DNA of 64,000 nt. Source: Candidatus Latescibacterota bacterium (GTDB lineage: Bacteria > Latescibacterota > UBA2968). Under the pieces are notes generated by a model. That model searched no databases and had not been told where the DNA came from. It saw nothing but the letters and a program-made list of their open reading frames with translations. Positions within the stretch are counted from its first letter, which is position 1. Every line of letters begins with the position of its first letter. The position numbers were made by a program, and so were the translations under genes. Shown in pieces: positions 2,054-46,810 of the stretch. The stretch spans positions 416,001 through 480,000 of the forward strand of contig OZ220741.1 of assembly GCA_965116885.1 (NCBI GenBank), read 5' to 3'.

Positions 2054-3373
2054 ATGACCAAACAACCCAACATCCTCTTTTCCATGTGCGACGACCAGCG
2101 ACACGACTGCATGGGATGTGCGGGACATCCCTTCATCGACACACCTGCTATGGACCGCCTCGCCCGTGAAGGCATCCGCTTTGCCAATGGCTTCACCGCC
2201 ATACCCCTTTGCGCGCCCAGCCGAGCCAGCCATCTTTCCGGTGTTTATCCTCACACCCATCAGGCAGCGCACAACCGCGCGCCGATACGCTCCGACCTCG
2301 CAACCTGGCCCGAACAATTACAAAAATCGGGCTATCGCACGGGCTTCTTTGGAAAAATACACTACGGAACCGAAGGCATTGACCTGCCCGGTGGCGACCC
2401 CAAACCCGGCTTTGAACGCTGGGTCAGCTTTCGCGGCCAGGGCGACTACGAAGACCCCATCTTTATCATCGACGGTGAAGAAGTCAAACACCAGGGATAC
2501 AACACCGACCTCCTCGCCGATTACGTCGAACAATTTCTCGACCAAGACGACGACCGCCCCTGGGCAATCTGCCTGTGGTACAAAGCCCCTCATGGCCCCT
2601 TCACCCCACCGCCGCGTCATGCCCATGCCTATTCCGACGACGAACTGCCCAAACCCAATGCCCTGGGCGCGTCTCGCGACGGCAAAGCCAGAACTCTCCG
2701 CGAACGCCCTCACAGCTTCGAAGACAACGAACGCTACGACACCTTTATGCGCAACTACGTACGCACCGTACGCGGCGTCGATGATGCCCTGGGCCGGGTA
2801 CTCGACAAAATCGACGCCATTGGACAAACCAACAACACACTCGTCGTACACACCAGCGACCACGGCTACTTCCACGGCGAATTTGGCCTCGGCGACAAAC
2901 GCTGGATGTATGACCCATCCATCCGCGTCCCCTATCTCATGCGCTATCCCGACCTCATCGCCAACCCCGGGCGCGTAGAACACACCGACGCAATCAGCCT
3001 CGACATCCCGGCAACCATCATGGACGTATCCGGTCTCGGCGTACCCGATCACTACCACGGCCACTCCCTGCGACCACTTCTAACCAACACAGGCGAAATA
3101 CCTCGAGAAGACCTCTTCTTCGAATACTTCGAAGACCCGCCCTATCCCTATTTCCCAACAATGGTCTGCCTGAGAACCCAAACCGAAAAACTCATCCACT
3201 ACATCCGCGAAGGCGAAGGCGACGAATATTACGACCTCGTCAACGACCCCCACGAATACACCAACGCCATCGCCGACCCCGCTTATGCCCATCGCGTGGC
3301 CGACATGCAAAAACGGCTTTCAGACGCCCGGGAACGCTTTGCATTCACCGTTCCAGACCTGTCGGGCTACTAA
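2054..3373 (+). CDS. Sulfatase (formylglycine type, Cys)
   Basis: PNILFSMCDDQR, CAPSRAS (CxPxR), GYRTGFFGKIH, SDHG. Confidence 0.92.
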   Translation: MTKQPNILFSMCDDQRHDCMGCAGHPFIDTPAMDRLAREGIRFANGFTAIPLCAPSRASHLSGVYPHTHQAAHNRAPIRSDLATWPEQLQKSGYRTGFFGKIHYGTEGIDLPGGDPKPGFERWVSFRGQGDYEDPIFIIDGEEVKHQGYNTDLLADYVEQFLDQDDDRPWAICLWYKAPHGPFTPPPRHAHAYSDDELPKPNALGASRDGKARTLRERPHSFEDNERYDTFMRNYVRTVRGVDDALGRVLDKIDAIGQTNNTLVVHTSDHGYFHGEFGLGDKRWMYDPSIRVPYLMRYPDLIANPGRVEHTDAISLDIPATIMDVSGLGVPDHYHGHSLRPLLTNTGEIPREDLFFEYFEDPPYPYFPTMVCLRTQTEKLIHYIREGEGDEYYDLVNDPHEYTNAIADPAYAHRVADMQKRLSDARERFAFTVPDLSGY

Positions 3374-3385
3374 GCGAATTAAGTT

Positions 3386-3417
3386 AAAAGCAACCACAGA
3401 TGAACACAGATGAACAC
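3386..3417 (+). repeat. Decamer tandem repeat element (ACAGATGAAC)n; identical 32-nt copy at 6829-6860
   Basis: aaaagcaaccacagatgaacacagatgaacac occurs twice; variant (GCAGATGGAC)n on the minus strand at about 1224-1252. Confidence 0.8.
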
Positions 3418-3443
3418 AGAGTAAAAAACTAAAAGGAATACCC

Positions 3444-4943
3444 ATGATCGAACACCCCAACCTCCTGCTCATCACAACAGACACCCAGCGCTGGGACACC
3501 CTCAACTGCATGGGCAGTCCCTTTGCACATTCACCTCATGCAGATCGCCTCGCGGCCGAAGGCGTCATGTTCACACAGGGACACACGCCCTCACCGGTAT
3601 GCAACCCCTCGCGCAGCAGCCTCATCACCGGCCTGCACACCCCCATACACGGCGTATGGGAAAACGGCATGACCCGCCTCACCCACTTCCCAACCCTACC
3701 CGACCTCCTCAAAGAACAGGGCTACACCAACATCATGGTCGGCAAACAACACTTTGGACAAACCCCCGACACTTTTGACATCATCATCGGCCAGGACGAT
3801 TACAGAAAATACATCCCAAAACATGGATTCACACCCCGGGACTGCCACAAACAACCCACACCCGTACCCGAAGAACACTTCCTCGACACCTTTTTCGCCA
3901 AACAAACCATCGAACAAATTGACCAGGTCGTCAAGCGCGATTCGGGTCCCTTTTTCGCCTTCTGCTCATTCCCCGCGCCACACCCACCCGAATGTCCACC
4001 GGGAGACTGGCTCACCTTTTACGACAACTGCGACAACCTGCCCGACCTCAATTACACCCACCGCGAAGAACAAAACCAGCCCGCACACACCAAACGCCTC
4101 CTCGGCATCAAACCCGAAAACGAATGCCATCCAGGCGAAGACCCAAACACCATCACATACTGGCGAGAAGCCATTGGCCGCATCTACGACCCGCAATACC
4201 GCGACACCATCATGGAACTCCGCAAAATCTATTATGCCTATGCCGCGTACTGCGACGCTCTCCTCGGCCGCATCCTGAACTACCTCGACCAGAATAACCT
4301 TAGGGAAAACACCCTGATCGTCTTCACATCCGATCACGGACAACAATTCTTCGACCACGGCTTTAATGACAAACACAACTTCTACGATGAATCCTGGCGC
4401 GTCCCCTTTATCATGAGCATGCCAGGCACCCTTCCGCAAGGAGAAACGCGCGACTTCGCCATCTGGAACGACATCACCACCACCCTCCTCGCGGCTGCCG
4501 GCACCGAATGCCCCTCCATGCAGGGCTTCGACCTCTTCACCCCACTCGCCAGAGGCGAACAATCCCCCCGCCGCTGCGCCGTTGCCACCCTCTACAAATC
4601 CTGCGCCGTCGCCACAAAACGCTGGAAACTCGATTACTTTTTTGAAGAAGACGAAGGCCGTCTCTTTGACCGCATCAACGACCCCCAGGAACAAAACGAC
4701 CTCTACCACCATCCAGACCATCTCGAAATCCGCAACGAACTGCGCCACGCCCTCTTATCCTGGCGCGGCGACATCGCCGACCTCAAAACCGCACTGGAAG
4801 GCACAACCAAAAACAGGGGACCAAACGCCCGGGGATACACCACCGTAGCCCCTCGCATTGCCCCACACACCCATCAAATGCGCGGCACCGACGCCGAACA
4901 GCGCCTGAATGAAAAATGTGAACGGATAGACGAGATGGGGTAA
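3444..4943 (+). CDS. Sulfatase (choline-sulfatase-like family)
   Basis: PNLLLITTDTQR, CNPSRSS, GKQH, SDHG. Confidence 0.9.
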   Translation: MIEHPNLLLITTDTQRWDTLNCMGSPFAHSPHADRLAAEGVMFTQGHTPSPVCNPSRSSLITGLHTPIHGVWENGMTRLTHFPTLPDLLKEQGYTNIMVGKQHFGQTPDTFDIIIGQDDYRKYIPKHGFTPRDCHKQPTPVPEEHFLDTFFAKQTIEQIDQVVKRDSGPFFAFCSFPAPHPPECPPGDWLTFYDNCDNLPDLNYTHREEQNQPAHTKRLLGIKPENECHPGEDPNTITYWREAIGRIYDPQYRDTIMELRKIYYAYAAYCDALLGRILNYLDQNNLRENTLIVFTSDHGQQFFDHGFNDKHNFYDESWRVPFIMSMPGTLPQGETRDFAIWNDITTTLLAAAGTECPSMQGFDLFTPLARGEQSPRRCAVATLYKSCAVATKRWKLDYFFEEDEGRLFDRINDPQEQNDLYHHPDHLEIRNELRHALLSWRGDIADLKTALEGTTKNRGPNARGYTTVAPRIAPHTHQMRGTDAEQRLNEKCERIDEMG

Positions 4944-5010: not shown

Positions 5011-6813
5011 CTACCGGTATTGGAACTCCGGCGACCCGATCAACATACTCACCACCTGTATATCTTTGCGCTGAGCATCTGCGGGAACCATCTCTTTGAC
5101 CTCTGATGCAATAGCACTGGTATCCTGTGCTGGCAACAGCAACTTGCTATACATCGCCAATGCCTCTTCAGTCGTTGGCGTATGCTCGCTCTGCCTGGGC
5201 AACTGCTTCAGTACAACCCCCCCAATCCTGCCCATCGCCAGACGCACGCCAAAATTCAATCGCGCAATCAGCGTACCCGAATTTGCCCACGACTCGGCAT
5301 AATCCGGAAAACCCGTAGGCGGCTCATAACCATACAGCGGCTCGCCCATGCGGTAAAACCAGCCCATCAGCGGCTGTGGATTCCGTACATCGGCTTCCAA
5401 TGCACGAAGAGAACTCACCACCAGTTCTAACGGCGACTTCATCTTGCTCCGATTCTTAGCCTCTGCCCAAAACTCACGCGACTGCGCCAGCGTAGCCATC
5501 ACAGCAGCGATATCCCCATCCGTCTTGCTAAATGTCTTCGCCATCCGCACAACCAGCGCCTCGGGAGGACTGTCGTTCACAAACCGACGCGCCAACTTCG
5601 TAGAAATAAAACGCGCAGTTGAAGGGTGTTTGGTCAGCATATCCAGAACGCGCTCGCCCTCTTCTATACCACCCCCTGCCGGGAACTGCTCACCCAACAC
5701 CACCTTGGCCTTTTTATCGTGCCAGGCATTGCGGAACAGAAATTCACCCTGGCGAACGAGATTCTTATTGCCATTGGCGATTGCCTTATCGGTATTCTTG
5801 CGCCCATTGCCATAAGGCATCGCAGTCCACCCCGTCAACACACGCGCAACCTCGGTAACATCCCGCTGCGTGTATCCACCATCCACACCCAGCGTGTGCA
5901 ACTCCATCAACTCGCGGGCATAATTCTCATTCAAACCATACTTGCGTCTTGGAGGCGTCTTCGGCTTCGCAACAGCCTTCGGCGGAGCCTTCGCCATCTC
6001 GCCACCCATCATCTCACCACCCATCATACCGCCATCCATACCGCCATCCATACCCATCTCGCCCATTGCCACTTCCTTCTTTGGCTCAGGCTTTGCCTGA
6101 TTCTGCTGTGGCGTAGCCATACGCGACTGTGCATTATCCAGATAATGCAACATCGCCGGATGCTTTGCCGTCGCGCCCAAAATCACGCGGAACTTACCCA
6201 GCACATTGGGACGAATGGCATCGCGCTCATAGGTAAGCACGCGACTGCGCGCCCCACCATCGCGCGTGGTCACATTGAAGTGATTAAACCAGAAATCCGT
6301 CAACACCTCGGCGAGTTGGTTCTCGCTATACACAGCCCGCATCACCTTCTGACTCCGAAGCTCCTGATTAAAAAGCGCGTAATAAGGACGCAACCCGTGC
6401 TCCTCGCGATACGCTTTCATCTTTTCCCGCATCTCTTTGAGAGGCGTCGTCGCCGGATCCATCACCCCTTCTCTTTTCATCTGATTGCGAAGTTGACCAT
6501 CTGGCATATAGATTTCGGCTATTTGTAACTGCGTCATTTTCAACGCCGGAAACGCTTCCAATCGCTTGTCCAGCTCAGCATCTGGCAAATTGCCCTTCAA
6601 CTGCTGAGCCAGCCACTTCTCGGGACCCATCTGCGCCACTCTTTCCACTTCACCTGGCCGCGCACCAAAGGCAAAACGCTCTAAGAGATACGCCGTAGCC
6701 TGCTCCTTGCTCAGCCCTTCTTTTTTATAGGGCAATTTCAACCCGGCATCCGCCGTAGCCCCAGAAAGCAACGCACCACAGCACAAAACAATAAGTGAAA
6801 AACGAAATATCAT
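5011..6813 (-). CDS. DUF1800 family exported protein, paralog 3
   Basis: DFWFNHFNV, HPAMLHYLDN, NENYARELMELHTLGVDGGYTQ, SPEFQYR; signal peptide; start MIFRF with AGGAGG RBS. Confidence 0.9.
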   Translation of the reverse strand: MIFRFSLIVLCCGALLSGATADAGLKLPYKKEGLSKEQATAYLLERFAFGARPGEVERVAQMGPEKWLAQQLKGNLPDAELDKRLEAFPALKMTQLQIAEIYMPDGQLRNQMKREGVMDPATTPLKEMREKMKAYREEHGLRPYYALFNQELRSQKVMRAVYSENQLAEVLTDFWFNHFNVTTRDGGARSRVLTYERDAIRPNVLGKFRVILGATAKHPAMLHYLDNAQSRMATPQQNQAKPEPKKEVAMGEMGMDGGMDGGMMGGEMMGGEMAKAPPKAVAKPKTPPRRKYGLNENYARELMELHTLGVDGGYTQRDVTEVARVLTGWTAMPYGNGRKNTDKAIANGNKNLVRQGEFLFRNAWHDKKAKVVLGEQFPAGGGIEEGERVLDMLTKHPSTARFISTKLARRFVNDSPPEALVVRMAKTFSKTDGDIAAVMATLAQSREFWAEAKNRSKMKSPLELVVSSLRALEADVRNPQPLMGWFYRMGEPLYGYEPPTGFPDYAESWANSGTLIARLNFGVRLAMGRIGGVVLKQLPRQSEHTPTTEEALAMYSKLLLPAQDTSAIASEVKEMVPADAQRKDIQVVSMLIGSPEFQYR

Positions 6814-6995
6814 TGCAAACCTCCTTGAAAAAGCAACCACAGATGAACACAGATGAACACGGATAAAAGGCAACTGCATGCAGCTATCATAAAAGTTAAA
6901 AACCCCCATTCTGGCTGGACGCCTGCTTAAAGCATATAGGCGTGACAAGATTACTGACGTTGTACCTTGCTTCACATAGGTACCCATCCACCAGT

Positions 6996-8735
6996 TTATC
7001 GGTATTGAAACTCCGGCGACCCCAGCAGCATGCTGACCACCTGAACCTCTTTGCGTTTGGCATCATCTGGAATCGTCTCTTTCACCTCTGACGCAATAGC
7101 ACTCGTATCCTGAGCTGGCAACAGCAACTTGCCATAAACCGCCAGTGCCTCATCCGTTGTCAGACCGCTATCCCGGGACAAGCGCTTCAATTCAATCCCT
7201 CTAATTTTGCCCGCAGCCAGATGAACGCCAAAATTCATTCGCGCAATCAGCGTACCCGCATTCGCCCACGACTCGGCATAATCCGGATAACCCGTAGGCG
7301 GCACATAACCATACAGCGGCTCACCCATGCGGTTAAACCAGCCCATCATAGGCTGTGGATTCTTCACATCGGCTTCCAATGCGCGAAGAGAACTCACCAC
7401 CAGTTCTAACGGCGACTTCATCTTGCTGCGCTTCTTCGCCTCTGCCCAAAATTCCCTGGACTGTGCCAACGTAGCCACCACAGCAGCGATATCTCCATCG
7501 GTTTTGGTAAATATCTTCGCCATCCGCTCGACCAGCGCCTCGGGAGGACTATCGTTTATAAACCGACGCGCCAACTTTGTAGAAATAAAACGCGCGGTCG
7601 AAGGGTGTTCGGACAGCATATCCAGAACGCGCTCGCCCTCTTCCATGCCACCACCTGCCGGGAACTTCTCACCCAACACCACCTTGGCTTTTCTGTCGTG
7701 CCAGTCTCTGCGGAACACAAATTCGCCCTCGCGAACGAGTTTATTACTTCCTTTTGCGATTTGCTTCTCGAGATTTTTCCGCGCATTTTTATACGGCATC
7801 GCAGCCCAACCCGTCAACACGCGCGCGACCTCGGTAACATCCTCCTGCGTATATCCACCATCCACGCCCAGCGTGTGCAACTCCATCAACTCCCGGGCGT
7901 AATTCTCATTCAAACCATACTTGCGTCTGTTTTTTGGAGGGGGCTGCGCCATAGCCTCACCGCCCATCATACCACCATCCATACCCATCTCGTCCGATGC
8001 CACCTTCTGCCCGGGTTGATTCCGCTCTGAGGGCGGTGCCATACGCGACTGTGTATTGTCCAGATAATACAACATCGCCGGATGCTTCGCCGTCGCACCC
8101 AAAATCACGCGGAACTTGCCCAACACATTGGGACGAATGGCATCGCGCTCATAAGAGAGCACATAACCGCGCGCCCCACCATCGCGCGTGGTCACATTGA
8201 AATGATTAAACCAGAAATCCGTCATCACCTCAGTGAGCTGATTCTCGCTATACACAGCCCGCATCACTTTCTGGCTCTGAATTTCATGATTAAAAAGCGC
8301 GTTGTAAGAACGCAACCCGTGCTCCTTGCGATACGCCCTTATCTTCTGAAACATCTCTTTGCGATCCATCTTTGCGGCATCAACCACGCCCTGTCTCTCC
8401 AGTATTCGGCGAATCCGCCCACTCTGCACATAAGTTTCAGACATTTCAAACTGCGTCATTTTCAACGCGGGAAACGCTTCCAAGCGTTTGTCCAACTCGG
8501 CATCTGGCAAATTGCCAGCCAACTGTTGAGCCAGCCACTTCTCGGGCCCCATCTGCGCCACCTTTTCCACCTCACCTGGGCGCGCACCAAAAGCAAAACG
8601 CTCTAAGAGATACGCTGCAGCCTGCTCCTTACTCAACCCCTCTGCCTTGTAGGGCAGTTGCAACTCAGCATCCGCCGTAGCCCCAGAACGCAAAGCACCA
8701 CAGCACAAAACAACGAGTGAAAAACGCAATATCAT
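6996..8735 (-). CDS. DUF1800 family exported protein, paralog 2
   Basis: Same motifs; start MILRF with GGAGG RBS. Confidence 0.9.
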   Translation of the reverse strand: MILRFSLVVLCCGALRSGATADAELQLPYKAEGLSKEQAAAYLLERFAFGARPGEVEKVAQMGPEKWLAQQLAGNLPDAELDKRLEAFPALKMTQFEMSETYVQSGRIRRILERQGVVDAAKMDRKEMFQKIRAYRKEHGLRSYNALFNHEIQSQKVMRAVYSENQLTEVMTDFWFNHFNVTTRDGGARGYVLSYERDAIRPNVLGKFRVILGATAKHPAMLYYLDNTQSRMAPPSERNQPGQKVASDEMGMDGGMMGGEAMAQPPPKNRRKYGLNENYARELMELHTLGVDGGYTQEDVTEVARVLTGWAAMPYKNARKNLEKQIAKGSNKLVREGEFVFRRDWHDRKAKVVLGEKFPAGGGMEEGERVLDMLSEHPSTARFISTKLARRFINDSPPEALVERMAKIFTKTDGDIAAVVATLAQSREFWAEAKKRSKMKSPLELVVSSLRALEADVKNPQPMMGWFNRMGEPLYGYVPPTGYPDYAESWANAGTLIARMNFGVHLAAGKIRGIELKRLSRDSGLTTDEALAVYGKLLLPAQDTSAIASEVKETIPDDAKRKEVQVVSMLLGSPEFQYR

Positions 8736-8749
8736 TGGCAAACCTCCAC

Positions 8750-8789
8750 AAAAAAACTCGAGTGCCATACTTCGACACTCGAGTTTTTT
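8750..8789. terminator. Intrinsic terminator-like hairpin between DUF1501 and DUF1800 paralog 2
   Basis: aaaaaactcgagtg...cactcgagtttttt. Confidence 0.65.
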
Positions 8790-8863
8790 CTTGCAGCGGT
8801 GTAAACTGCACACGCGCAACACAACGTGTCAGTACAGCATCAAATGAGTGGTTAAAAATGACT

Positions 8864-10132
8864 TTACGTCATCACCTTAAACCGCTCACCTTCCCAACCC
8901 GGGAACATCGCGATATCGTGGGAACGATCGATATTCAGATGCTTACCAGCCACATCGGCAAACACAGAACGGAAATCCGTCGTCACGGGCAAATCGCGCC
9001 GATCTTCGAGCGCATCTTTCACCAGCTTCTCTGGCACATTCCCGTGGATCTTTCCACCATTCACGTTATTCCCCAGCACAAACAGACACGATCCGCGGCC
9101 GTGATCCGTACCCAGAGAACCGTTCTGATGCACCGTGCGACCAAATTCCGTCATCGTCATCAGCACAACATCGTCCTGATACGTACCCAGATCCGTCCAG
9201 AATGCCGCGATAGACTTAGACATCTCATCTGCTCTGCGCTGGAAAGAACCCGTCGTTGTGCCCTGCTGCACATGCGTATCCCAACCGCCAGTCTCGGTAA
9301 ACGCCACTTCAAGCCCCACATCCGACTTGATCAGCAACGCGATCTGTTGCAGCCTGCGACCCAATGCCGTATTGGGATAGTTCGCGCCTTCAACGGGTTT
9401 GTAATCTCGTACACCGATCTTTTCCAACAACTCAATCGCATCAAAACTCTCCCGGCTCACCCTCTGAACCAGGCGTTTGGCACTCCGCGCATACATCGCC
9501 TCAAACCCTTCCTCCACCTGTTCGGCCCCCTGCGGATTATTCGGCATCTGAATGCCAAAGGAACGCAAATCATCCACTGCAATCGAAGGCTCCTTCCCGT
9601 AAAATGCACGCGGCAAGGCTCTCGTCAATGCCACAGACCGGAAGGGCGTACCCTCGTGACCGAGCAAACCCACAGCCCGATTGAGCCAACCCGTCCGCGT
9701 ACCCTTCACACCGGGCGTCCCATTCTCCATATAATCCTGGGCGTCAAAGTGCGAACGCGTCTTATTCGGCGAACCTACGCCGTGTACAATAGCCAGACGG
9801 CCATCCTTGTACAGCGGTGCCAGATCCGCAAAAGAGGGATGCAATGCAAAGCGACCATCCAGATCTGTCAGTTCGTTTTTCGGATCAGTCAGATGCATAA
9901 ACAAATTGGGGCGTGCCTCGGCAAGGGCGGCATCGTTAAATGGCGTCACCGCCATCAAACCATCCATAGCCCCGCGCTGGAAAATCGTCACCAGCACTTT
10001 GCGACGGCTATGTGCCAGCGGATTATTCGCAGCATCAGCCGCGCGGCTCAAGAACAGCGGCGTCCCCCCAAACGAGGCAGAAAACAATGCCAAACCACTG
10101 CCCTTCATAAATGCTCTTCGAGTCCATTCCAT
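8864..10132 (-). CDS. DUF1501 family protein with Tat signal
   Basis: TRRAFMK, FQRGAMDGL, RSHFDAQ, GGWDTH, EFGRT, GTDHG; usual DUF1800 partner. Confidence 0.92.
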   Translation of the reverse strand: MEWTRRAFMKGSGLALFSASFGGTPLFLSRAADAANNPLAHSRRKVLVTIFQRGAMDGLMAVTPFNDAALAEARPNLFMHLTDPKNELTDLDGRFALHPSFADLAPLYKDGRLAIVHGVGSPNKTRSHFDAQDYMENGTPGVKGTRTGWLNRAVGLLGHEGTPFRSVALTRALPRAFYGKEPSIAVDDLRSFGIQMPNNPQGAEQVEEGFEAMYARSAKRLVQRVSRESFDAIELLEKIGVRDYKPVEGANYPNTALGRRLQQIALLIKSDVGLEVAFTETGGWDTHVQQGTTTGSFQRRADEMSKSIAAFWTDLGTYQDDVVLMTMTEFGRTVHQNGSLGTDHGRGSCLFVLGNNVNGGKIHGNVPEKLVKDALEDRRDLPVTTDFRSVFADVAGKHLNIDRSHDIAMFPGWEGERFKVMT

Positions 10133-10152
10133 AACGCTATCTCCTTTCCGAT

Positions 10153-11943
10153 TTATCGGTATTGAAATTCCGGCGACCCCAGCAACATACTGATCACCTG
10201 AACCTCTTTGCGTTCGGCATCAGCGGGAATCGTCTGTTTAACCTCTGACGCAATAGCACTGGTATCCTGTGCTGGCAACAGCAACTTGCTATACATCGCC
10301 AATGCCTCTTCCGTTGTCAGACCAGCGCTCTCCTCGGGCAATTGCTTCAATTCAATCCCTCTAATTCTGCCCGCAGCCAGATGGATACCAAAATTCATTC
10401 GCGCAATCAGCGTACCCGAATTTGCCCACGACTCGGCATAATCCGGAAAACCCGTAGGCGGCAAATAACCATACAGCGGCTCGCCCATGCGGTCAAACCA
10501 GCGCATTATCGGCTGCGGATTCTTCACATCGGCTTCCAGCGCGCGAAGAGAACTCACCACCACTTCTAACGGCGACTTCATCTTACTCCGCTTCTTCGCC
10601 TCTGCCCAAAACACGCGGGACTGCGCCAGCGTAGCCATCACAGCAGCGATATCCCCATCGGTTTTGGTAAAGGTCGCCGCCATCGCATCAATCACATCAT
10701 CTGACGGTGCATCGTTGACAAACCGACGCGCCAGTTTCGTAGAAATAAAACGCGCGGTTGAAGGATGACTGGTCAGCATATCCAGAACGCGCTCGCCCTC
10801 TTCTATGCCACCACCTGCCGGGAACTTCTCACCCAACACCACCTTGGCCTTGTCGTCGTGCCACGATTTGCGGAACACAAATTCGCCCTGAAGAATGTTA
10901 TTTTGATTCCCATTGGCCATTTGTTTTTTGATATTTTCGCGTCCCCTTCCATAAGGTGCCGCAGCCCATCCGGTCAACACACGCGCAACCTCGGTAACAT
11001 CCTGCTGCGTGTATCCACCATCCACACCCAGGGTATGCAACTCCATCAATTCGCGGGCGTAATTCTCATTCAAACCATACTTGCGCTTGCGTCTTGGCGG
11101 AGTCTGCGCCTTTGCGGGAGCCTTCTCTGGAGCTTTTGCCATCTCACCACCCATATCGCCATCCATCCCACCATCCATACCCATCTCACCCGATGCCATC
11201 TCCTTCACAGGCTCGGGCTTTGCCTGCTCTCTCTCCGATGGCGGCGCCATACGCGACTGTGCATTATCCAGATAATACAACATCGCAGGATGCTTCGCCG
11301 TCGCGCCCAAAATCACGCGGAACTTGCCCAACACATTGGGGCGAATTGCATCGCGCTCATAGGAAAGTGTGCGACTGCGCGCCCCACCATCGCGCGTGGT
11401 CACATTGAAGTGATTGAACCAGAAATCCGTCATCACCTCAGTGAGCTGATTCTCGCTATACACCGCCCGCATCAGCTTCTGTCCCTTCAGTTCCTGATTG
11501 GACAGCATGCCATAGGGACGCAACCCGTGCTCTTTGCGATACGCGTTTATCTTTTCATTCATCTCCTTGCGAGGCGTCTTCGCGGGATCAATCAACCCCG
11601 CTTTCGCCACCATTCTGCGAATCCGCCCATTATTCACATAAACTTTAGACATCTCTTCCTGGGTCATTTTCAGGGCGGGAAACGCCTCCAGCCGTTTCTC
11701 CAACTCGGCATCCGGCAAATTGCCCTTCAACTGCTGAGCCAGCCACTTCTCTGGACCCATCTTTGCCACTTTTTCCACTTCACCTGGACGCGCACCAAAG
11801 GCAAAACGCTCCAGAAGATACGCTGCAGCCTGCTCCTTACTCAGCCCCTCTGCCTTGTAGGGCAGTTGTAAATCGGCATTTGCCGGAGCTACCGCAAGCA
11901 GCGCACCGCAGCACAAAACAGCAAGTGCAACGCGCAATATCAT
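10153..11943 (-). CDS. DUF1800 family exported protein, paralog 1
   Basis: Same motifs; start MILRV with AGGAGG RBS. Confidence 0.9.
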   Translation of the reverse strand: MILRVALAVLCCGALLAVAPANADLQLPYKAEGLSKEQAAAYLLERFAFGARPGEVEKVAKMGPEKWLAQQLKGNLPDAELEKRLEAFPALKMTQEEMSKVYVNNGRIRRMVAKAGLIDPAKTPRKEMNEKINAYRKEHGLRPYGMLSNQELKGQKLMRAVYSENQLTEVMTDFWFNHFNVTTRDGGARSRTLSYERDAIRPNVLGKFRVILGATAKHPAMLYYLDNAQSRMAPPSEREQAKPEPVKEMASGEMGMDGGMDGDMGGEMAKAPEKAPAKAQTPPRRKRKYGLNENYARELMELHTLGVDGGYTQQDVTEVARVLTGWAAAPYGRGRENIKKQMANGNQNNILQGEFVFRKSWHDDKAKVVLGEKFPAGGGIEEGERVLDMLTSHPSTARFISTKLARRFVNDAPSDDVIDAMAATFTKTDGDIAAVMATLAQSRVFWAEAKKRSKMKSPLEVVVSSLRALEADVKNPQPIMRWFDRMGEPLYGYLPPTGFPDYAESWANSGTLIARMNFGIHLAAGRIRGIELKQLPEESAGLTTEEALAMYSKLLLPAQDTSAIASEVKQTIPADAERKEVQVISMLLGSPEFQYR

Positions 11944-11976
11944 AGCAACCCTCCTTGAAAATTCCCCAAAGGGAAT

Positions 11977-12069
11977 GGCATTGTGAATATTTAATATAAA
12001 ATATATCACAATGCCTAATGGTGCAATGCAATTATACAATTATATACAACACTATACAATTTTATACAA
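11977..12069. promoter_or_regulatory. Candidate operator region of the DUF1800/DUF1501 cluster
   Basis: Perfect inverted repeat GGCATTGTGA-N19-TCACAATGCC (11977-12015) and TATACAA x4 at exact 10-bp spacing (12033, 12043, 12053, 12063). Confidence 0.6.
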
Positions 12070-23229: not shown

Positions 23230-24537
23230 TCATGGATGCAACCTGTTGGGGGTGCGAGACAAAAAAGTCGTCTCTCGCACAGAGGACAAGCCGAGCATAA
23301 CCATGAGCAGGCGCGACAGGCCAAAACCAAATCCTCCGTGCGGAGGACATCCGTACTTAAAAAAATCGAGATAAAACTGGATAACCTCTAAATCCAGCCC
23401 CTTCTCTCTCGCCTGCGCCCTCAGGACATCGGGACGGTGTTCGCGTTGCGCGCCTGTAGTAATCTCCACACCGCGATAGAGAAGGTCAAAACTCCTGGTC
23501 AACTCAGGATATTCTGAATGACGCATGTGGTAAAATGGTCGCACAGAAACCGGGTAGTCTATCACAAAGACATAATCGCATCCCCTGGTTTTACGGATAT
23601 ATTCACCTATCAGACGCTCACCCTTTGGATCGAGATCGCCTTCCCGATCTGGCATGTGGCCCTGTTCGGACAACACCGCCAATGCCTCGGCCATCGCGAT
23701 CCGCGGAAAAGGCAGCACTGGCACCGCGAGTTCAACACCGTAATTTTCGGCAATAGCGTCACCATATTTTTCTCGCACTGTATAAATGACATGTTGCAGC
23801 CATTGTTCTTCAAATGCCATCACATCCTCGTGACCATCAATCCAGGCGATCTCGACATCCACACTCGTAAACTCCGTCGTATGACGCGAAGTAAATGAGG
23901 GATCGGCGCGAAAAACGGGCGCAATTTCAAACACGCGATCAAAACCAGACGCCATTGCCATCTGCTTGTAAAACTGGGGTGATTGCGCCAGATAGGCCGT
24001 AGAATTAAAATACGGCAACGCGAACAACTCAGCCCCCGATTCACTGGCTGTACCCATCAGTTTGGGAGAGTGGATCTCGATAAAATGATTTTGCATCCAG
24101 TACTCGCGCATCGCCATTTCAACAGCAGTCTGTATCTCAAAAATCAACCGATTGCTCGGAACGCGAAGATCGAGATGCCGCCAATCCAGCCGATGGTCAA
24201 TACCCGATGCATTTTCGGAAAATGGATCCAGAGGCAACGGCGCTTCAGCTACATTGACAACACTCAGTTCCGCAAGCTGAATCTCAACACCCCCCAGACG
24301 AACACCTGGATTTTCGACAACGTGTCCGCTTATGGATATCGCCGATTCTCGCGTAAGAGCAGAAACCCGCTCTGCCAACGCCCCTGTCTTTTCGTGAACA
24401 ACCTGTACACTTCCCGTGCGATTTCTCAAAATGAGAAACTGGACATGTTTTTGGTCGCGCAGGGCATGCACCCATCCGTGAAGCGTAACGGTTTGGCCGA
24501 TATATTTGGACAGTTCAGATATTGCAATGTATTTCAT
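23230..24537 (-). CDS. aspS: Aspartate--tRNA ligase, short archaeal-genre, probably non-discriminating (Asp/Asn)
   Basis: 435 aa, OB fold GWVHALRD, AYLAQSPQFYKQ, FRAD...RH, GAQREH, PPHGGFGFGLSR; no bacterial GAD insertion. Confidence 0.92.
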   Translation of the reverse strand: MKYIAISELSKYIGQTVTLHGWVHALRDQKHVQFLILRNRTGSVQVVHEKTGALAERVSALTRESAISISGHVVENPGVRLGGVEIQLAELSVVNVAEAPLPLDPFSENASGIDHRLDWRHLDLRVPSNRLIFEIQTAVEMAMREYWMQNHFIEIHSPKLMGTASESGAELFALPYFNSTAYLAQSPQFYKQMAMASGFDRVFEIAPVFRADPSFTSRHTTEFTSVDVEIAWIDGHEDVMAFEEQWLQHVIYTVREKYGDAIAENYGVELAVPVLPFPRIAMAEALAVLSEQGHMPDREGDLDPKGERLIGEYIRKTRGCDYVFVIDYPVSVRPFYHMRHSEYPELTRSFDLLYRGVEITTGAQREHRPDVLRAQAREKGLDLEVIQFYLDFFKYGCPPHGGFGFGLSRLLMVMLGLSSVRETTFLSRTPNRLHP

Positions 24538-24565
24538 GACAGACTCCTTTTTGAATTCCAGAAAT

Positions 24566-24601
24566 AAAAAAAGCCCGTTGTCGAAAAATACGACAACGGG
24601 C
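24566..24601 (-). terminator. Attenuator terminator upstream of aspS
   Basis: Perfect 11-bp stem GCCCGTTGTCG/CGACAACGGGC followed by T7. Confidence 0.85.
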
Positions 24602-24631
24602 ACTTTACTCTACATACTGGCACAAGACGAC

Positions 24632-24730
24632 CTATGCCGGTCCAGCCCGTCGCCGGATCGGATTATTATCGTCATTATTATTGCCAGTGAACTGAGCGAT
24701 TTGGAAATAGCGTATATGCATAGTATTCAT
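24632..24730 (-). CDS. aspS leader peptide MNTMHIRYFQIAQFTGNNNDDNNPIRRRAGPA (alternative start 24721)
   Basis: Seven consecutive Asn/Asp codons, followed by an antiterminator strand at 24645-24655. Confidence 0.8.
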   Translation of the reverse strand: MNTMHIRYFQIAQFTGNNNDDNNPIRRRAGPA

Positions 24731-24837
24731 CCAAAAAATTATTAGATATTGGGGTGGCTTGGTGGGGTTCGTCTATTCGTCTATGAACTGGCCTGAGAGG
24801 CGGCCAGTTGTACCCCGTTCCGTCTATTCGTGATTTT

Positions 24838-25572
24838 TTAAACTTTTCTCCCGCCAAAAACAGCCAGTTCAAACAGCTTGAAATAACAATCTACATCTGA
24901 AAACCCAATGGCTCTGAGCCATTCGCATTGGTCTTCAACAGACGCGAGAATATTCGCCTGCTTATCATCGCGATAATAATAAGCCCGCGCGATTTCATCG
25001 CGAGAAGCATTTGGATCTCGCCGGGTAACAGAATTGTAAAGCGCGTCAATAAAACGATCTGCAAAACGCGACTCAACCCACTTTGTCGGAGAGCGAACAT
25101 GCTCGACATTGACAAACACACCATTGGGAGAAAGCAGATCAAAAATCTCGCCATAAACCTCGCGCTTGCGTTCATCGCTCTGGTGATGAATTGAAAAACC
25201 CGACACAATCGCATCATAAGGCGCATCATCTGCAACCAGACTGAGCCAATCGGACGTCGCATAATCCCCAATAACAAAACGATGCTGTGAAACCGTTTCC
25301 CCAAACCGTTTCCGCGCAGCCTCGATCATAGCCTCAGAAAAATCCACAAAAACGCCGCGTGCATCCGGGTGGTATTCAATAACCGCAGCACCGAGGATGC
25401 CATCGCCACACCCCAGATCCAGCACAGTATTGACCCTGTGATCATCCGCATTGATCACCCGGCACATAACGGCAATCTGCTCATCGGACAGCGGAATTGC
25501 CTGCCGAATATTTTTCAAATATTTCTGCGCCAGATCCCGCGCCTGCCAGGCAGTGTCTTTGCGTTTGCTCAT
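24838..25572 (-). CDS. Class I SAM-dependent methyltransferase
   Basis: VLDLGCGDG, VDFSEAMI, SGFSIHH; start MSKRK. Confidence 0.88.
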   Translation of the reverse strand: MSKRKDTAWQARDLAQKYLKNIRQAIPLSDEQIAVMCRVINADDHRVNTVLDLGCGDGILGAAVIEYHPDARGVFVDFSEAMIEAARKRFGETVSQHRFVIGDYATSDWLSLVADDAPYDAIVSGFSIHHQSDERKREVYGEIFDLLSPNGVFVNVEHVRSPTKWVESRFADRFIDALYNSVTRRDPNASRDEIARAYYYRDDKQANILASVEDQCEWLRAIGFSDVDCYFKLFELAVFGGRKV

Positions 25573-27637: not shown

Positions 27638-27679
27638 CTCGCATGTCCTTTCTCCCCAAAGGGGTAGATAGCCACCAAC

Positions 27680-27712
27680 AAAAAAACCCGCCGAAGATGC
27701 TTCGGCGGGTTC
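27680..27712 (-). terminator. Terminator in the leader of the VOC gene
   Basis: AACCCGCCGAAG-N3-CTTCGGCGGGTT followed by a T run. Confidence 0.85.
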
Positions 27713-27742
27713 GTTTTTGCAAGACTATTATGTACTGTAAGT

Positions 27743-27925
27743 CTATCGTCTCATTTTGAACCCGCCAATAATATTTTTGTCATTACCCGTGAAAACCGCG
27801 AGATTCAGTCCACTTTCCGGGCACACATGGCCAGTAGCACGGACAAATGACATCTGCACGGATGCACTGATAGCGCAGTCATCCATTATCTGTTGGGTAT
27901 TATACTGGTGGGTTACAAAAATCAT
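27743..27925 (-). CDS. Putative 60-aa leader peptide (MIFVTHQ...NIIGGFKMRR)
   Basis: Lies between a promoter and the terminator; its last codons contain an antiterminator strand (27758-27768). Confidence 0.55.
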   Translation of the reverse strand: MIFVTHQYNTQQIMDDCAISASVQMSFVRATGHVCPESGLNLAVFTGNDKNIIGGFKMRR

Positions 27926-43116: not shown

Positions 43117-44802
43117 TCAAGCAGACACAATGCGGATATCAACCTCAAATGTACTGACGGGATAATTTATACCCCAGATTTCGAGAACGCCGGGATGAAC
43201 TTCGCCAATAAGCCCGTAAACGCGCTCGCCTACGCAGATCTCGCCACTGCGACCGGGTAAAAATGTGGGATGCTCAATCGGCGCAATAGTATATTCAAAG
43301 TCAAAATAATAAGATAATACCTCCAGATAGCTCTGAATACCAGACAAATTGGCCTCGTCACTCGCTTCGAGCGCGCAAAGATGAATATCTGTGCGCGTAC
43401 CGTAATCTTCTCCCGACGCGAGAACCCCCACCTCACCCACTTCAAAAATCCGATGCGGGTACAACGCGCGGCGGCTTGTCGCTTCGGTCTTCAACAAACC
43501 GGGCAGCAGTGCCCCCCGAATCGCGCTGTAATTTTCGGACATGGGATTTGAAATCGAGACAATCTTTGCATCTGGATTATTCATATCCACGGTCTGTTCT
43601 TTTTTAGAACAGAGAATCGGCAAAAAGACCTCTTGAAATCCGCTCCCAACCATGAGATTGCGAAATCGGTCTGCAAGATCCTCTTCTGGTGCGGCTTTGC
43701 CAATCGTAAAATCCCGGGGCATCTCGGGTTCAAAAGCCTCGTACCCCACACCGATCACAACATCTTCCACCACATCGACGGGATGCAAAATATCGTCGCG
43801 ATAAGGTGCTGGACGCACTTTAATAATCCGGTCTCGTACATCAACATCCCGATAACCCATCGCGTTGAGCGCGGTCTGAATCTGCCCTATCGAAATATGT
43901 GACCCAACCACTTTGTAAATCTCATCTATATCGACTTGCAATGGCTCGGTCATATCATACGGACACGTCACAACCTGTCCCCTCGGCGTGTGAAATGGAT
44001 ACCGCACCGTCACGGGATAAATGCGACCGCCCCGGTCAGCCATATTGACCGCCATAATCGCCATAGACAAAAGAATAGCGTCGAGTTCAGGACCCGTTGC
44101 TTCGCAAAACAAAAACGTATCCCCCACTTCAACGCGCCCCAGGCTCTGACTATTAATAACAGGAGGCATCGAAAGAACCTCGCCGCGCGAATCGCGGATC
44201 AGGGGAAACTTATCCTTCCCCTCGAGAAGATGTGCATACATCCTGCCCGTGGGATGATCGGACAAAATCTGTCGCAAAGACATCTCATCTTCAAACTCCA
44301 GAGGAACAAAAGCCGTCACATCGGGATCAACCGCATCGTATCGCACCGGATACACAATATCGGACGCATCGTAAATCCCAATCGCAACAACGCTGCGCCC
44401 GCGCCCATATCCATCGGCGAGTTTTTCCTGCGCCTCGATAAGCGCATCCAGTGCCGCATCATCAATCGCAATACCCTCACACGCAAAAGCGGCAATATAG
44501 GGACGGATATTTCGCAAGCCGGGATCGACAATAACCTCCCGTTCCTGCGATACGCCAGACGCATCAAAAAAAGAATAATCCGGCTTCACATTCTCCCGAT
44601 GGCTTTTGAGCAATCGCGCAAGCCCCTCTCCCGACCACAAATCGGGGCGGTTGGTATCCTTGAGTTGAATGCGAAGCGTATCGCCCTCTTCCGCATCGAT
44701 CTCAGCCTTCGCCGTTTCAAGCGCAACACTCAAACTCTCCGAAGAATAAACCTGCCCTGCGAGACGTTCAAAATCGGGTTTATTAACTGTAATCGTTGGC
44801 AT
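43117..44802 (-). CDS. pheT: Phenylalanine--tRNA ligase beta subunit, short archaeal/eukaryotic genre
   Basis: 561 aa, MPTITV, TNRPDLWS, LSMPPVINS, YRDDILHPVDVVED. Confidence 0.92.
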   Translation of the reverse strand: MPTITVNKPDFERLAGQVYSSESLSVALETAKAEIDAEEGDTLRIQLKDTNRPDLWSGEGLARLLKSHRENVKPDYSFFDASGVSQEREVIVDPGLRNIRPYIAAFACEGIAIDDAALDALIEAQEKLADGYGRGRSVVAIGIYDASDIVYPVRYDAVDPDVTAFVPLEFEDEMSLRQILSDHPTGRMYAHLLEGKDKFPLIRDSRGEVLSMPPVINSQSLGRVEVGDTFLFCEATGPELDAILLSMAIMAVNMADRGGRIYPVTVRYPFHTPRGQVVTCPYDMTEPLQVDIDEIYKVVGSHISIGQIQTALNAMGYRDVDVRDRIIKVRPAPYRDDILHPVDVVEDVVIGVGYEAFEPEMPRDFTIGKAAPEEDLADRFRNLMVGSGFQEVFLPILCSKKEQTVDMNNPDAKIVSISNPMSENYSAIRGALLPGLLKTEATSRRALYPHRIFEVGEVGVLASGEDYGTRTDIHLCALEASDEANLSGIQSYLEVLSYYFDFEYTIAPIEHPTFLPGRSGEICVGERVYGLIGEVHPGVLEIWGINYPVSTFEVDIRIVSA

Positions 44803-44822: not shown

Positions 44823-46364
44823 CTACCGCGTATTCCTGACCAGATCCAAATCCGTACTGAACAAATCGCGAATATCGTTAATACCCAGCGCGACCATCGC
44901 CATTCTATCAACCCCCAGACCCCAGGCAATAACTGGCACATCCACACCCAGAGGTCGTGTAAGTTCAGGCCGAAAAAGACCCGCGCCACCAAGTTCGATC
45001 CATCCCAGAACGGGATGCTTCGCCTGAAGTTCGACCGAAGGCTCGGTAAAAGGAAAATAATCGGGCACATAGCGCACATCTTCGGCCTGCGCGATCTCAA
45101 GGGCGAACAGCTTGAGCAAACCGAGCAAACTGCGAAAATTTATCTCCTCGCCCAAAACAATACCCTCAGCCTGAAAAAAATCTGCCGCGTGCGTGGCATC
45201 GACATCATCCGGACGAAAACAACGCGCAAGAGCGAAATACTTACCCGGGATATTCGGTTCTGAAGCGAGCGCACGCGCCGAAAGCGCAGTGCCCTGACTC
45301 CGCAAAATAAGGCGGCGCGACTGTTCGGGATTAAATTCATATCGCCACCCGCGCGACCCCGTATCGCCCCCATTTTGATGCGCCTCAGCCACCCGGGAAA
45401 AATGGGGTTCCTCTGCCTCTCGGGATTGCGTTGGCTCCGTAACATAATACGCATCGTGAATATTGCGCGCCGCGTGAAACTGCGGCATAAAAAGGGCATC
45501 CATATTCCAGAACTCGGTCTCCACCAGAGAACCTTTCAACTCTTCAAAACCAAGCGCCATCAACCGGCGCCGCACATTATCGAGATACGCCCGATAGGGA
45601 TGGTGCTTCCCAATAAGCACGCGCGGCGGCTTAATCGACAAATCATATCGGCGAAAAGATGCGCCCTGCCATGTACCTTTCTGAATCATTTCCGGCGTAA
45701 GCCGAGAAACTTCATCACCCGTAAGATTGGCTTTGACAACCTCCACAAGCACGCGCCGCCCTTCTTCCGTAAGACAATAAACCCGCTCTGTGCGCTCGTC
45801 CAAACGAACAGGCGCCCTGCCCCCGCCGCGCTTGCGGGCATTGGCTTCAATATATTGGACAACATCACCGGGAAAATTATCAATCTCAATTCCCGTATCG
45901 GAAAATTTGTCAAACAATTCTGGCATAAGTCGATCAATAAAAAAAGAAGCCCGATCTGCATCGACAATAACAACAGCCCCCTTATCCAGATCGATAATCC
46001 CATCCTTTTTCAAACCGCCAAAAGCACTGCCCCAGGCACCTCTGTCAAAACGCTCGTCGGCTTGCAAATCTTGAATCCCAACGCGCTCTGCACTCGCCCG
46101 GGTCAAAAGTGCCGTCTCTGGCGTCGCGCCCTTTGTTGCAAAATCCCGTCCCACTTCCGTAAGCGAAACTGTTGCGCGCGTATTTTCCCCGGTAACTTCG
46201 AGCAACTGCTTGGAAATCAGCCACTCAACCGCGCGTCTAACCTGTCCTTCGCCAATGCCTGCCCCCTTTTGAAGTTGTGCATCGGACTGCTCGGCACTGG
46301 CATTATTCTCATATACACGCAAAATGCGAATTTCGAGCGCATGTAAAGAAGCGAGATCCATCAA
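44823..46364 (-). CDS. pheS: Phenylalanine--tRNA ligase alpha subunit, long archaeal/eukaryotic genre
   Basis: 513 aa, FWNMDALFMPQFHAAR, YFPFTEPS, WGLGVDR; start TTG 46364 or ATG 46361. Confidence 0.93.
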   Translation of the reverse strand: MMDLASLHALEIRILRVYENNASAEQSDAQLQKGAGIGEGQVRRAVEWLISKQLLEVTGENTRATVSLTEVGRDFATKGATPETALLTRASAERVGIQDLQADERFDRGAWGSAFGGLKKDGIIDLDKGAVVIVDADRASFFIDRLMPELFDKFSDTGIEIDNFPGDVVQYIEANARKRGGGRAPVRLDERTERVYCLTEEGRRVLVEVVKANLTGDEVSRLTPEMIQKGTWQGASFRRYDLSIKPPRVLIGKHHPYRAYLDNVRRRLMALGFEELKGSLVETEFWNMDALFMPQFHAARNIHDAYYVTEPTQSREAEEPHFSRVAEAHQNGGDTGSRGWRYEFNPEQSRRLILRSQGTALSARALASEPNIPGKYFALARCFRPDDVDATHAADFFQAEGIVLGEEINFRSLLGLLKLFALEIAQAEDVRYVPDYFPFTEPSVELQAKHPVLGWIELGGAGLFRPELTRPLGVDVPVIAWGLGVDRMAMVALGINDIRDLFSTDLDLVRNTR

Positions 46365-46531: not shown

Positions 46532-46800
46532 AAAAAAGCCCCTTCGTCATCATATAGGGACGAAAGAGCTTCTCCGCGGTACCACCCTATTTGCGCTAAA
46601 AAGCACCACTCAGCGGATGGCCATCACCATCCTGTCCATTATCGGTGGACCCACCGGCTCGGCTTAATAGGAAACTGTCTCTCCATTCGGCTTTGCAGCT
46701 CGGGAGGGAACTTCGCCTGTGCATCCTGCAGATGTGCTTTCAGCCCAGGACACATCCTCTCTATGCAGTTGGGAACAGGCTACTTTTCTCCGTCATAGCT
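46532..46800 (-). ncRNA. T-box riboswitch (Phe specifier), transcriptional type
   Basis: AGGGTGGTACCGCG T-box (46575-46588); stem I AGTA, AGAGA and GCTGAAA motifs; GAAG-TTC specifier (46708-46710); terminator 46532-46570. Confidence 0.9.
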
Positions 46801-46810
46801 TTAAAGGCAA

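Follow-up and report, generated by a model that had tools for sequence, protein, structure and literature searches.

How is the synthesis of an aspartyl-tRNA synthetase (AspRS) adjusted when the enzyme appears to supply two different tRNAs, those for aspartate (Asp) and for asparagine (Asn)? The question is raised by the leader of aspS, the gene for an archaeal-type AspRS, in a 64,000-nucleotide (nt) stretch of DNA from a Candidatus Latescibacterota bacterium (GCA_965116885.1, contig OZ220741.1, positions 416,001-480,000, forward strand), here called the window. We conclude that this leader is probably a classical ribosome-mediated transcription attenuator with a new specificity, for Asn and in addition for Asp. 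The reading is based on sequence anatomy, conservation, covariation, changes in the N/D (Asn/Asp) codons that are confined to synonymous sites, and geometry. Comparisons were made with 80 aspS loci of 9 kb each from one genome scan: 11 close Latescibacterota (L001-L011), two distant Latescibacterota (L028 and L036, with 63-64% AspRS identity) and 67 loci from other phyla.

Organization of the aspS leader

A short upstream open reading frame (uORF), a cluster of cognate codons, an intrinsic terminator, an antiterminator exclusive of that terminator and the placement of regulatory codons expected of an attenuator were all found upstream of aspS (Table 1). In a run of 10 uORF codons, seven specified Asn or Asp (N/D), an enrichment with P ~9e-6 against a background of 10.0% N+D among 18,817 window codons. 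The antiterminator strand paired with the 5' arm of the terminator at all 11 positions, two of them G-U, at -19.6 kcal/mol. The terminator, GCCCGTTGTCG-TATTTTT-CGACAACGGGC at 24601-24573, had 11 perfect pairs and was followed by T7 at 24572-24566; the folding energy of its hairpin was -20.2 kcal/mol, close to that of the antiterminator duplex. The spacer from the uORF stop to the terminator hairpin was 30 nt, and the gap between the end of the T-run and the aspS ATG was 28 nt, holding the Shine-Dalgarno sequence AAGGAG. The 304-nt intergenic leader as a whole folded with a z score of -4.5, and none of 100 shuffles folded as well.

An earlier note on this DNA had described the uORF, the terminator, the 28-nt gap and an 11-base-pair (bp) antiterminator with two G-U pairs; its coordinates and pair count were all correct, on the minus strand. 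The note had also placed MNT in front of the uORF peptide, using an alternative ATG at 24730. The N/D-rich frame was present as described, but that start was not conserved. Only ATG 24721 was, being kept in 12 of 12 close sequences, and the position of the upstream ATG was taken by the stop codon of the preceding gene in L001, L002, L005 and L010.

For the untranslated leader, a protector (anti-antiterminator) structure was predicted, in which ACUGGCA (24688-24682) pairs with 24622-24616 and GACGAU (24673-24668) with 24631-24626. Its predicted inner hairpin (CCG/UCCGGC with GCUGGA/CGG, 24661-24637) would sequester the antiterminator strand. The 5' strands of the protector coincide with Thr-Gly codons (ACUGGCA) and Asp codons (GACGAU), and their partners lie just past the uORF stop. 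The protector and antiterminator folds were near-isoenergetic in the prediction (-32.6 vs -30.2 kcal/mol over 24690-24591).

In 6 of the 11 close loci (L001, L002, L005, L007, L009 and L010) the stop of the preceding gene lay no more than about 21 nt, and mostly 7 nt, from the uORF ATG. Because the methyltransferase stop is so near, the leader is probably co-transcribed with the upstream genes, and ribosomes may arrive at the uORF by coupling. Further, the 28 nt between the U-tail and the aspS ATG leave no room for a separate aspS promoter, so that transcription of the presumably essential aspS would have to cross the terminator.

Table 1. Positions of the aspS leader elements, neighboring genes and further features of the window.
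Feature	Position	Strand	Remarks
Methyltransferase-like gene	end at 24838	(-)	Upstream neighbor of the leader
Repeat-bearing spacer			About 100 nt, between the end of the methyltransferase-like gene and the uORF
Leader uORF	24632..24721	(-)	MHIRYFQIAQFTGNNNDDNNPIRRRAGPA*; 29 codons plus stop; ATG at 24721, TAG at 24634-24632
Protector structure of the untranslated leader	24616..24688	(-)	Predicted fold
Regulatory codon run	24662..24682	(-)	AAT AAT AAT GAC GAT AAT AAT (N N N D D N N)
Antiterminator 5' strand	24645..24655	(-)	CGGCGACGGGC; within the codons for R R R A of the uORF
R-A-G-P codons	24638..24649	(-)	CGG GCT GGA CCG; tetrapeptide of the SecM arrest type
Intrinsic terminator	24566..24601	(-)	11-bp stem, 7-nt loop, U7 tail
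aspS	23230..24537	(-)	Archaeal-type AspRS, 435 amino acids (aa); ATG at 24537; Shine-Dalgarno AAGGAG at about 24549-24544
Direct-repeat insertion	24735..24838	(-)	About 100 nt
Second attenuator-like unit	27677..27925	(-)	About 3 kb upstream
uORF of the second unit	27743..27925		60 codons; MIFVTHQYNTQQ...NLAVFTGNDKNIIGGFKMRR*
Antiterminator of the second unit	27759..27768		UUGGCGGGUU; 10 bp
T-box leader	46553..46805	(-)	RF00230, 106.5 bits
pheS	44826..46364		Archaeal-type
pheT	43120..44802		Archaeal-type
DUF1800 and DUF1501 genes	5011..12039	(-)	Three DUF1800 genes and one DUF1501 gene in a row
Sulfatase genes	2054..4943		Two genes

Covariation of the helices and constraint on the coding sequence

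Both helices of the switch covaried in an alignment of 14 rows (10 close and 4 diverged). For the terminator, 97.4% of 152 cells were paired and 5 of the 11 pairs had changed on both sides, while slid controls gave 30-55%. For the antiterminator, 96.8% of 154 cells were paired, with two of 11 pairs changed on both sides and three on one side, and slid controls gave 30-61%. None of 500 shuffles reached the observed covariation score in either case.

The coding sequence was under strong constraint as well. Between the first Asn codon and the stop, a stretch of 51 nt, the 12 close sequences varied at three sites only, all of them third-position C/T changes that kept the encoded N, N and D; third positions of aspS differed by 13-23% across the same genomes (nine loci of equal length). 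The 13 N-terminal codons of the uORF varied more freely, with replacements as well as silent changes. The last 36 nt of the uORF stretch were invariant in the 12 close sequences even at silent sites, indicating that there is constraint on the RNA there too.

Distribution of the element among aspS loci

We looked for a stop-free stretch upstream of aspS with at least 5 N/D in 10 codons. The window had such a stretch, as did all 13 Latescibacterota loci, the two distant ones included. Among the 67 loci from other phyla, three of which had 82 nt or less of upstream sequence, only two unrelated matches occurred, both inside long open frames (L061 and L063). Of the 13 Latescibacterota loci, 12 had a strong hairpin with a T-run within 250 nt upstream of aspS, compared with 1 of 64 others; the locus missed by this strict rule, L011, has a 9-bp version of the hairpin nonetheless. 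Thus every one of the 13 Latescibacterota loci, and none of the 67 from other phyla, had the attenuator element ahead of aspS. A covariance model, R1, was built from 14 elements, with L005 and L007 outside the training set. It scored 84-141 bits in the window, in L001-L011 and twice each in L028 and L036, where training members match by construction; in the other loci of the set, no match adjoined aspS.

Rfam gave no match at any aspS leader, when the window and 16 loci were searched at the gathering score and positions 24450-24950 at E values up to 10. Weak matches to mir-BART, sok and STnc220 (13-16 bits, against cut-offs of 43-100) were due to chance. The T-box family RF00230 likewise had no match over 24450-24950, whether the gathering score or an E value of up to 10 was applied, while its model did score 106.5 bits at 46553-46805 of the window; the aspS leader is not a T-box. 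A tRNA scan found no tRNA genes in the window.

Two insertions were observed around the leader. The first, about 100 nt long, separates the methyltransferase stop from the uORF and contains ACGAATAGACG direct repeats and a hairpin, ACAACTGGCC...GGCCAGTT. Most relatives lack it; L003 (3745-3774) and L008 (3659-3688) have it at the same site, and it was found reversed downstream of aspS in L003 (5648-5677) and L007 (5724-5753). It looks like a small mobile repeat. The second (...GTCATGCTGAGCGGAGTGAAACGGAGTCGAAGCATC..., about 80 nt) separates the terminator from the aspS Shine-Dalgarno sequence in L006 (3895-4000), L007 (3895-4000) and L008 (3897-4000), where this interval measures 104-106 nt instead of 25-28 nt.

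Tandem units in the distant relatives

L028 and L036 each carried two tandem attenuator units, behind upstream genes that differed from those of the close group. The peptides of the distal uORFs ended in ..SNPNPNRDNSGTQRRDRL (L028) and ..FNPDSNPNNYGIQWRDLVLP (L036), and those of the proximal uORFs in ..LNPNPNSNFDNCAIRRRAGPWF and ..LNLNPNPNDDNNPIQRRAGPWFGS, respectively. No part was shared between units: each comprised an N/D-rich uORF, an antiterminator and a terminator with a U-run. Both uORFs of L036 were preceded by an AAGGAG Shine-Dalgarno sequence, and a promoter-like TTGACT-16-GATTAT was located 45 nt before the distal ATG.

The four tandem elements and the close group provided five largely independent looks at the design. 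In each of the five, Asn and Asp accounted for 5-7 of the 10 codons that precede the masking boundary (P 9e-6 to 1.6e-3 against the same background), with Asn:Asp ratios in these 10 codons of 5:2, 4:1, 5:1, 4:1 and 5:2. Since Asn outnumbers Asp by 2.5:1 to 5:1, the leader is best described as a sensor chiefly of Asn; every element also had one or more Asp codons.

Simulated effect of ribosome position on leader folding

The influence of a translating ribosome was simulated thermodynamically on a transcript ending before the 3' arm of the terminator. The ribosome was moved along the uORF codon by codon, and the 27 nt of its assumed footprint, from -12 to +14 relative to the P site, were kept unpaired. 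When the A site was on codons 9-19 of the window uORF, the full 11-bp antiterminator formed. It was reduced to 8 bp at codon 20 and 5 bp at codon 21, and no pair remained from codon 22 to the stop. The range of codons 9-19 ends in N N N D D N, and a ribosome within it removed the protector in the simulation. An antiterminator of 10-11 bp formed with the A site at or before the N/D run in six of six elements and was lost two to three codons past the run; the spacing from antiterminator to terminator was 48-55 nt in these elements. The proximal unit of L028 yielded 0 antiterminator pairs at all codons in the first simulation, in which its terminator arm bound far-upstream RNA. It resembled the other elements once the RNA upstream of the ribosome was held unpaired.

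The type of AspRS encoded by aspS

The indirect pathway to Asn-tRNA is described in passages of PMC4206432 and PMC2494555. The enzyme encoded in the window is, to judge from its sequence, of the non-discriminating (ND) type that such a pathway uses. It scored 500.6 bits against NF003483 of NCBIfam (cut-off 353) and 403 bits against TIGR00458, aspS_nondisc (cut-off 368.4), both of which carry the name aspartate--tRNA(Asn) ligase. It aligned end to end with archaeal-type structures of 438 aa and 422 aa (1b8a/3nel and 1n9w), with no bacterial GAD insertion. In this alignment it read GWVH, where 1b8a reads GWVW and 1n9w, the ND AspRS2, reads GFLH. The window enzyme thus shares with the non-discriminating AspRS2 of T. 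thermophilus a His at the site that is Trp26 in the discriminating enzyme of T. kodakarensis. A His at this site would widen tRNA recognition. A second determinant, K85P, had no clear alignment in the window enzyme. The closest relatives of this AspRS, at 84-95% identity, were all from Latescibacterota assemblies. No gatCAB, asnS or second aspS was found within the 64-kb window.

Proposed mechanism and alternative explanations

A non-discriminating AspRS makes both Asp-tRNA(Asp) and Asp-tRNA(Asn), the latter being turned into Asn-tRNA(Asn) by GatCAB. The two products of the enzyme would thus feed both pools read by the leader, Asp-tRNA(Asp) directly and Asn-tRNA(Asn) after amidation. We propose that a ribosome translates the uORF behind the polymerase that transcribes the leader. 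With ample Asn-tRNA(Asn) and Asp-tRNA(Asp), the ribosome would pass the NNNDDNN run and move onto the RRRAGPA codons, masking the antiterminator strand; the terminator would then form and transcription would end 28 nt before aspS. If either charged tRNA were scarce, the ribosome would stall on the N/D codons and melt the protector helices, whose 5' strands are those codons themselves. The freed antiterminator strand could then capture the emerging 5' arm of the terminator, giving read-through into aspS. When the uORF is not translated, the protector fold would keep the antiterminator strand and termination would be the default. The N and D codons would together monitor both end products with OR logic. 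The dominance of Asn codons fits a cell in which AspRS would be the gateway to Asn-tRNA.

The earlier note had read this locus as ribosome-mediated attenuation of a non-discriminating AspRS. That interpretation gained support from the conservation of the N/D-rich uORF upstream of aspS orthologs, the compensated pairs in both stems, the lack of any Rfam family that covers the leader as a rival, the simulated footprint geometry in all six elements, and the enzyme type, as judged from the NCBIfam matches above curated cut-offs and the His at the Trp26 position.

The excess of Asn over Asp in all five elements could also mean that Asn alone is sensed and the Asp codons are incidental. AspRS would then be a second enzyme for tRNA-dependent Asn synthesis, like AspRS2 in Deinococcus and Thermus, and passages of PMC4206432 report that extra archaeal-type AspRS genes serve Asn synthesis in other bacteria. 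However, each of the five elements kept at least one Asp codon, and four of the five shared an aligned GAT-AAT pair at the border of the stall window, which makes an exclusive Asn sensor unlikely. We consider it very improbable that the leader works as RNA only, by binding a tRNA, a metabolite or AspRS as a T-box-like switch or autoregulatory operator with an incidental reading frame. Such a switch would account for the 36 nt that are invariant at silent sites in 12 species, and the same genome does have a T-box before pheST. However, neither a T-box nor any other Rfam family matched the leader at E up to 10, changes in the N/D codons were solely synonymous, and the N/D run was at the footprint boundary in six of six elements. 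Further, the frame, the start and the N/D enrichment persisted in elements that have diverged in nucleotide sequence. It is hardly credible that the hairpin does no more than terminate the upstream methyltransferase operon and that the uORF is open by chance. The uORF does begin 10 nt or less past the methyltransferase stop in several relatives, but aspS would be left without room for a promoter of its own in 28 nt. In L028 and L036, whose upstream genes are different, the unit still accompanies aspS and occurs twice; its antiterminator covaries and its N/D enrichment is above chance.

Several observations weigh against ribosome-mediated attenuation at aspS. The Shine-Dalgarno sequence of the uORF was weak (GGAT/TGGA) in the close group and absent in L006. 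The alignment of 14 rows, 10 of them close, contained few independent changes, and the helices tested on it had been defined on the window sequence. The L011 antiterminator carried one uncompensated G-G mismatch, which coding may forbid to be repaired because the position is the middle base of an Arg codon. The 36-nt invariance cannot separate selection on the peptide from selection on structure. The protector fold was predicted in the window, L011 and the proximal L028 unit but not in the distal L028, distal L036 and proximal L036 units, where the antiterminator forms without a ribosome. In addition, the distal terminators (L028 3549-3745 and L036 3541-3727) had a C-A mismatch, with energies of -14.4 and -15.0 kcal/mol, and were absent from the terminator-scan listing on the expected strand. 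Given this mismatch and the lack of a predicted protector, the distal copies may be leakier than the proximal ones. The minimum free energy fold of the full-length leader contained the terminator at any ribosome position; the switch must therefore be kinetic, as in known attenuators, and transcripts ending before the 3' arm were simulated because equilibrium folding of the full leader did not discriminate between states. Finally, we infer translation of the uORF and the response of expression to tRNA charging from the sequence, and transcription-translation coupling in the uncultured Latescibacterota is assumed.

The conserved RRAGP motif

RRAGP was found at the end of the peptide in the window and in 13 of 13 aspS-proximal Latescibacterota leaders. 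The uORF stop followed its Pro by 2, 3 or 5 codons in three lineages, and in the window, L028 and L036 alike the Gly codon of RAGP began 12 nt past the first base of the antiterminator. Passages of PMC12992588 and PMC10987492 identify RAGP as the core arrest motif of both SecM and B. subtilis YwcI and report its depletion from bacterial proteomes; most of the RAGP segments tested in that work caused no arrest. The uORF shares with the RAGP-type peptides SecM and YwcI and the RAPP-type peptides ApdA and ApdP treated there an R-A-G-P motif near the C-terminus of a small upstream regulatory reading frame. However, such arrest peptides precede protein-localization genes (secA, secDF and yidC) and serve as monitoring substrates, whereas this uORF precedes aspS and has no secretion signal. 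For YwcI, passages of PMC10987492 indicate that a location upstream of protein-localization genes is not universal among RAGP peptides.

It is possible, though rather doubtful, that termination under Asn and Asp sufficiency is enforced by arrest at RRAGP with Gly in the P site instead of by a pause at the stop codon, as an addition to the classical model. We suggest only tentatively that the leader peptide would have two parts, hungry Asn/Asp codons that sense charging and an RAGP arrest that parks the trailing edge of the ribosome on the first antiterminator base. The footprint of a ribosome with Gly in the P site would start exactly at that base, and the motif was retained in all 13 proximal leaders across three lineages despite the drifting stop. 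The I-R/Q-R-R-A-G-P codons showed three synonymous changes and one replacement across these lineages. In L036, a ribosome at the stop no longer masked the antiterminator, of which 10 bp re-formed when upstream RNA was free to fold. By contrast, CGG-CGN-CGG-GC is the antiterminator strand itself and CCG lies in the predicted protector hairpin, so that constraint on this RNA helix may alone explain the conserved residues; arrest in this leader would be an extrapolation from the motif. The distal tandem units have no AGP (QRRD and QWRD), and the independent lineages number three only. If an arrest did occur here, this would be the first classical amino-acid attenuator to incorporate an arrest peptide, and the arrest would explain why the stop drifted 2-5 codons downstream between lineages while RRAGP stayed fixed.

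Other features of the window

A second attenuator-like unit was detected upstream of the aspS leader, with a score of 31.8 bits under model R1. It combines its long uORF with an antiterminator that opposes a 12-bp terminator with a U-run at a spacing of 57 nt, and downstream of it come glyoxalase-family, gamma-glutamyltransferase and methyltransferase genes, which extend up to the aspS leader. The unit was kept in eight loci (L002-L006 and L008-L010) and was not found in L001, L007 and L011. The last codons of its stall window specify G-N-D, and the residues close by (T, N, D, K, N, I and I) all belong to the aspartate family of amino acids.

The T-box leader of the window is located before pheS and pheT, with UUC at the specifier place. 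With a T-box at pheST and a peptide attenuator at aspS, the genome would use both kinds of control for synthetase genes. The only sigma-70-like promoter match near the aspS leader, inside the uORF over its AT-rich N run (24691-24662), was rejected as chance, the match count being not above that of shuffles.

Elsewhere, the row of DUF1800 and DUF1501 genes stands beside the two sulfatase genes, with a TonB-dependent-receptor-like gene and a PorV-like gene nearby. GC skew was negative in 31 of 32 2-kb bins of the window, down to -0.32, regardless of gene strand.

Relation to known systems and biological meaning

The E. coli pheST attenuator, with its pheM leader peptide, and the trp, his, leu, thr and ilv leaders are classical leader-peptide attenuators. 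The aspS leader shares with them a short uORF with cognate codons, mutually exclusive antiterminator and terminator helices, to which a predicted protector is added in the window, and a terminator just before the gene. As in pheST, the target is an aminoacyl-tRNA synthetase, and as in the thr and ilv leaders, one leader would read more than one amino acid. It differs from them in that Asn and Asp would be sensed, the target is an archaeal-type non-discriminating AspRS, the host belongs to the Latescibacterota, two lineages have tandem units, and there is no sequence similarity to any Rfam leader family. Known leader-peptide attenuators cover Trp, His, Leu, Thr/Ile, Ile/Val/Leu and Phe, and almost all come from Proteobacteria and Actinobacteria.

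The nearest physiological analog is a T-box in Clostridium acetobutylicum, which reportedly controls tRNA-dependent Asn formation by ND-AspRS and GatCAB (Saad et al., JBC, 2012; PNAS, 2013); in the later study, a single leader is reported to read two tRNAs. Both systems would tie the indirect Asn-tRNA pathway to charging through a terminator/antiterminator switch. However, a T-box binds uncharged tRNA directly and without translation, whereas the aspS leader would be read by a ribosome. Only Asn-tRNA(Asn) that EF-Tu can deliver, the end product of both pathway steps, would therefore count as charged.

The general mechanism of leader-peptide attenuation is described in passages of PMC2659441, which for aspS list only a predicted structured 'tRNA synthetase leader' in Shewanella, without a peptide. 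The literature consulted contained no Asn/Asp leader peptide and no peptide attenuator on aspS; it did not extend to the synthetase-attenuation survey of Lopatovskaya et al. 2010, which could hold a precedent.

The T-box at pheST raises the question why a ribosome-read sensor is used for aspS in the same genome. One possible answer is that a peptide leader reads two tRNA species at once; another is that it would count the finished Asn-tRNA(Asn) and not the Asp-tRNA(Asn) intermediate. The paired units of the distant relatives and the RAGP motif may mark a variant; both offer leads on the dynamic range of attenuators and on a firm default-off state. The aspS leader would add an Asn(+Asp) sensor to the known attenuators, bring a second synthetase class under such control, and extend it to a candidate phylum known from metagenomes alone. 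It would also provide a readout of physiology from sequence, since an Asn-dominated leader before AspRS argues that the enzyme feeds the Asn-tRNA pool, i.e., the indirect, GatCAB-dependent route.

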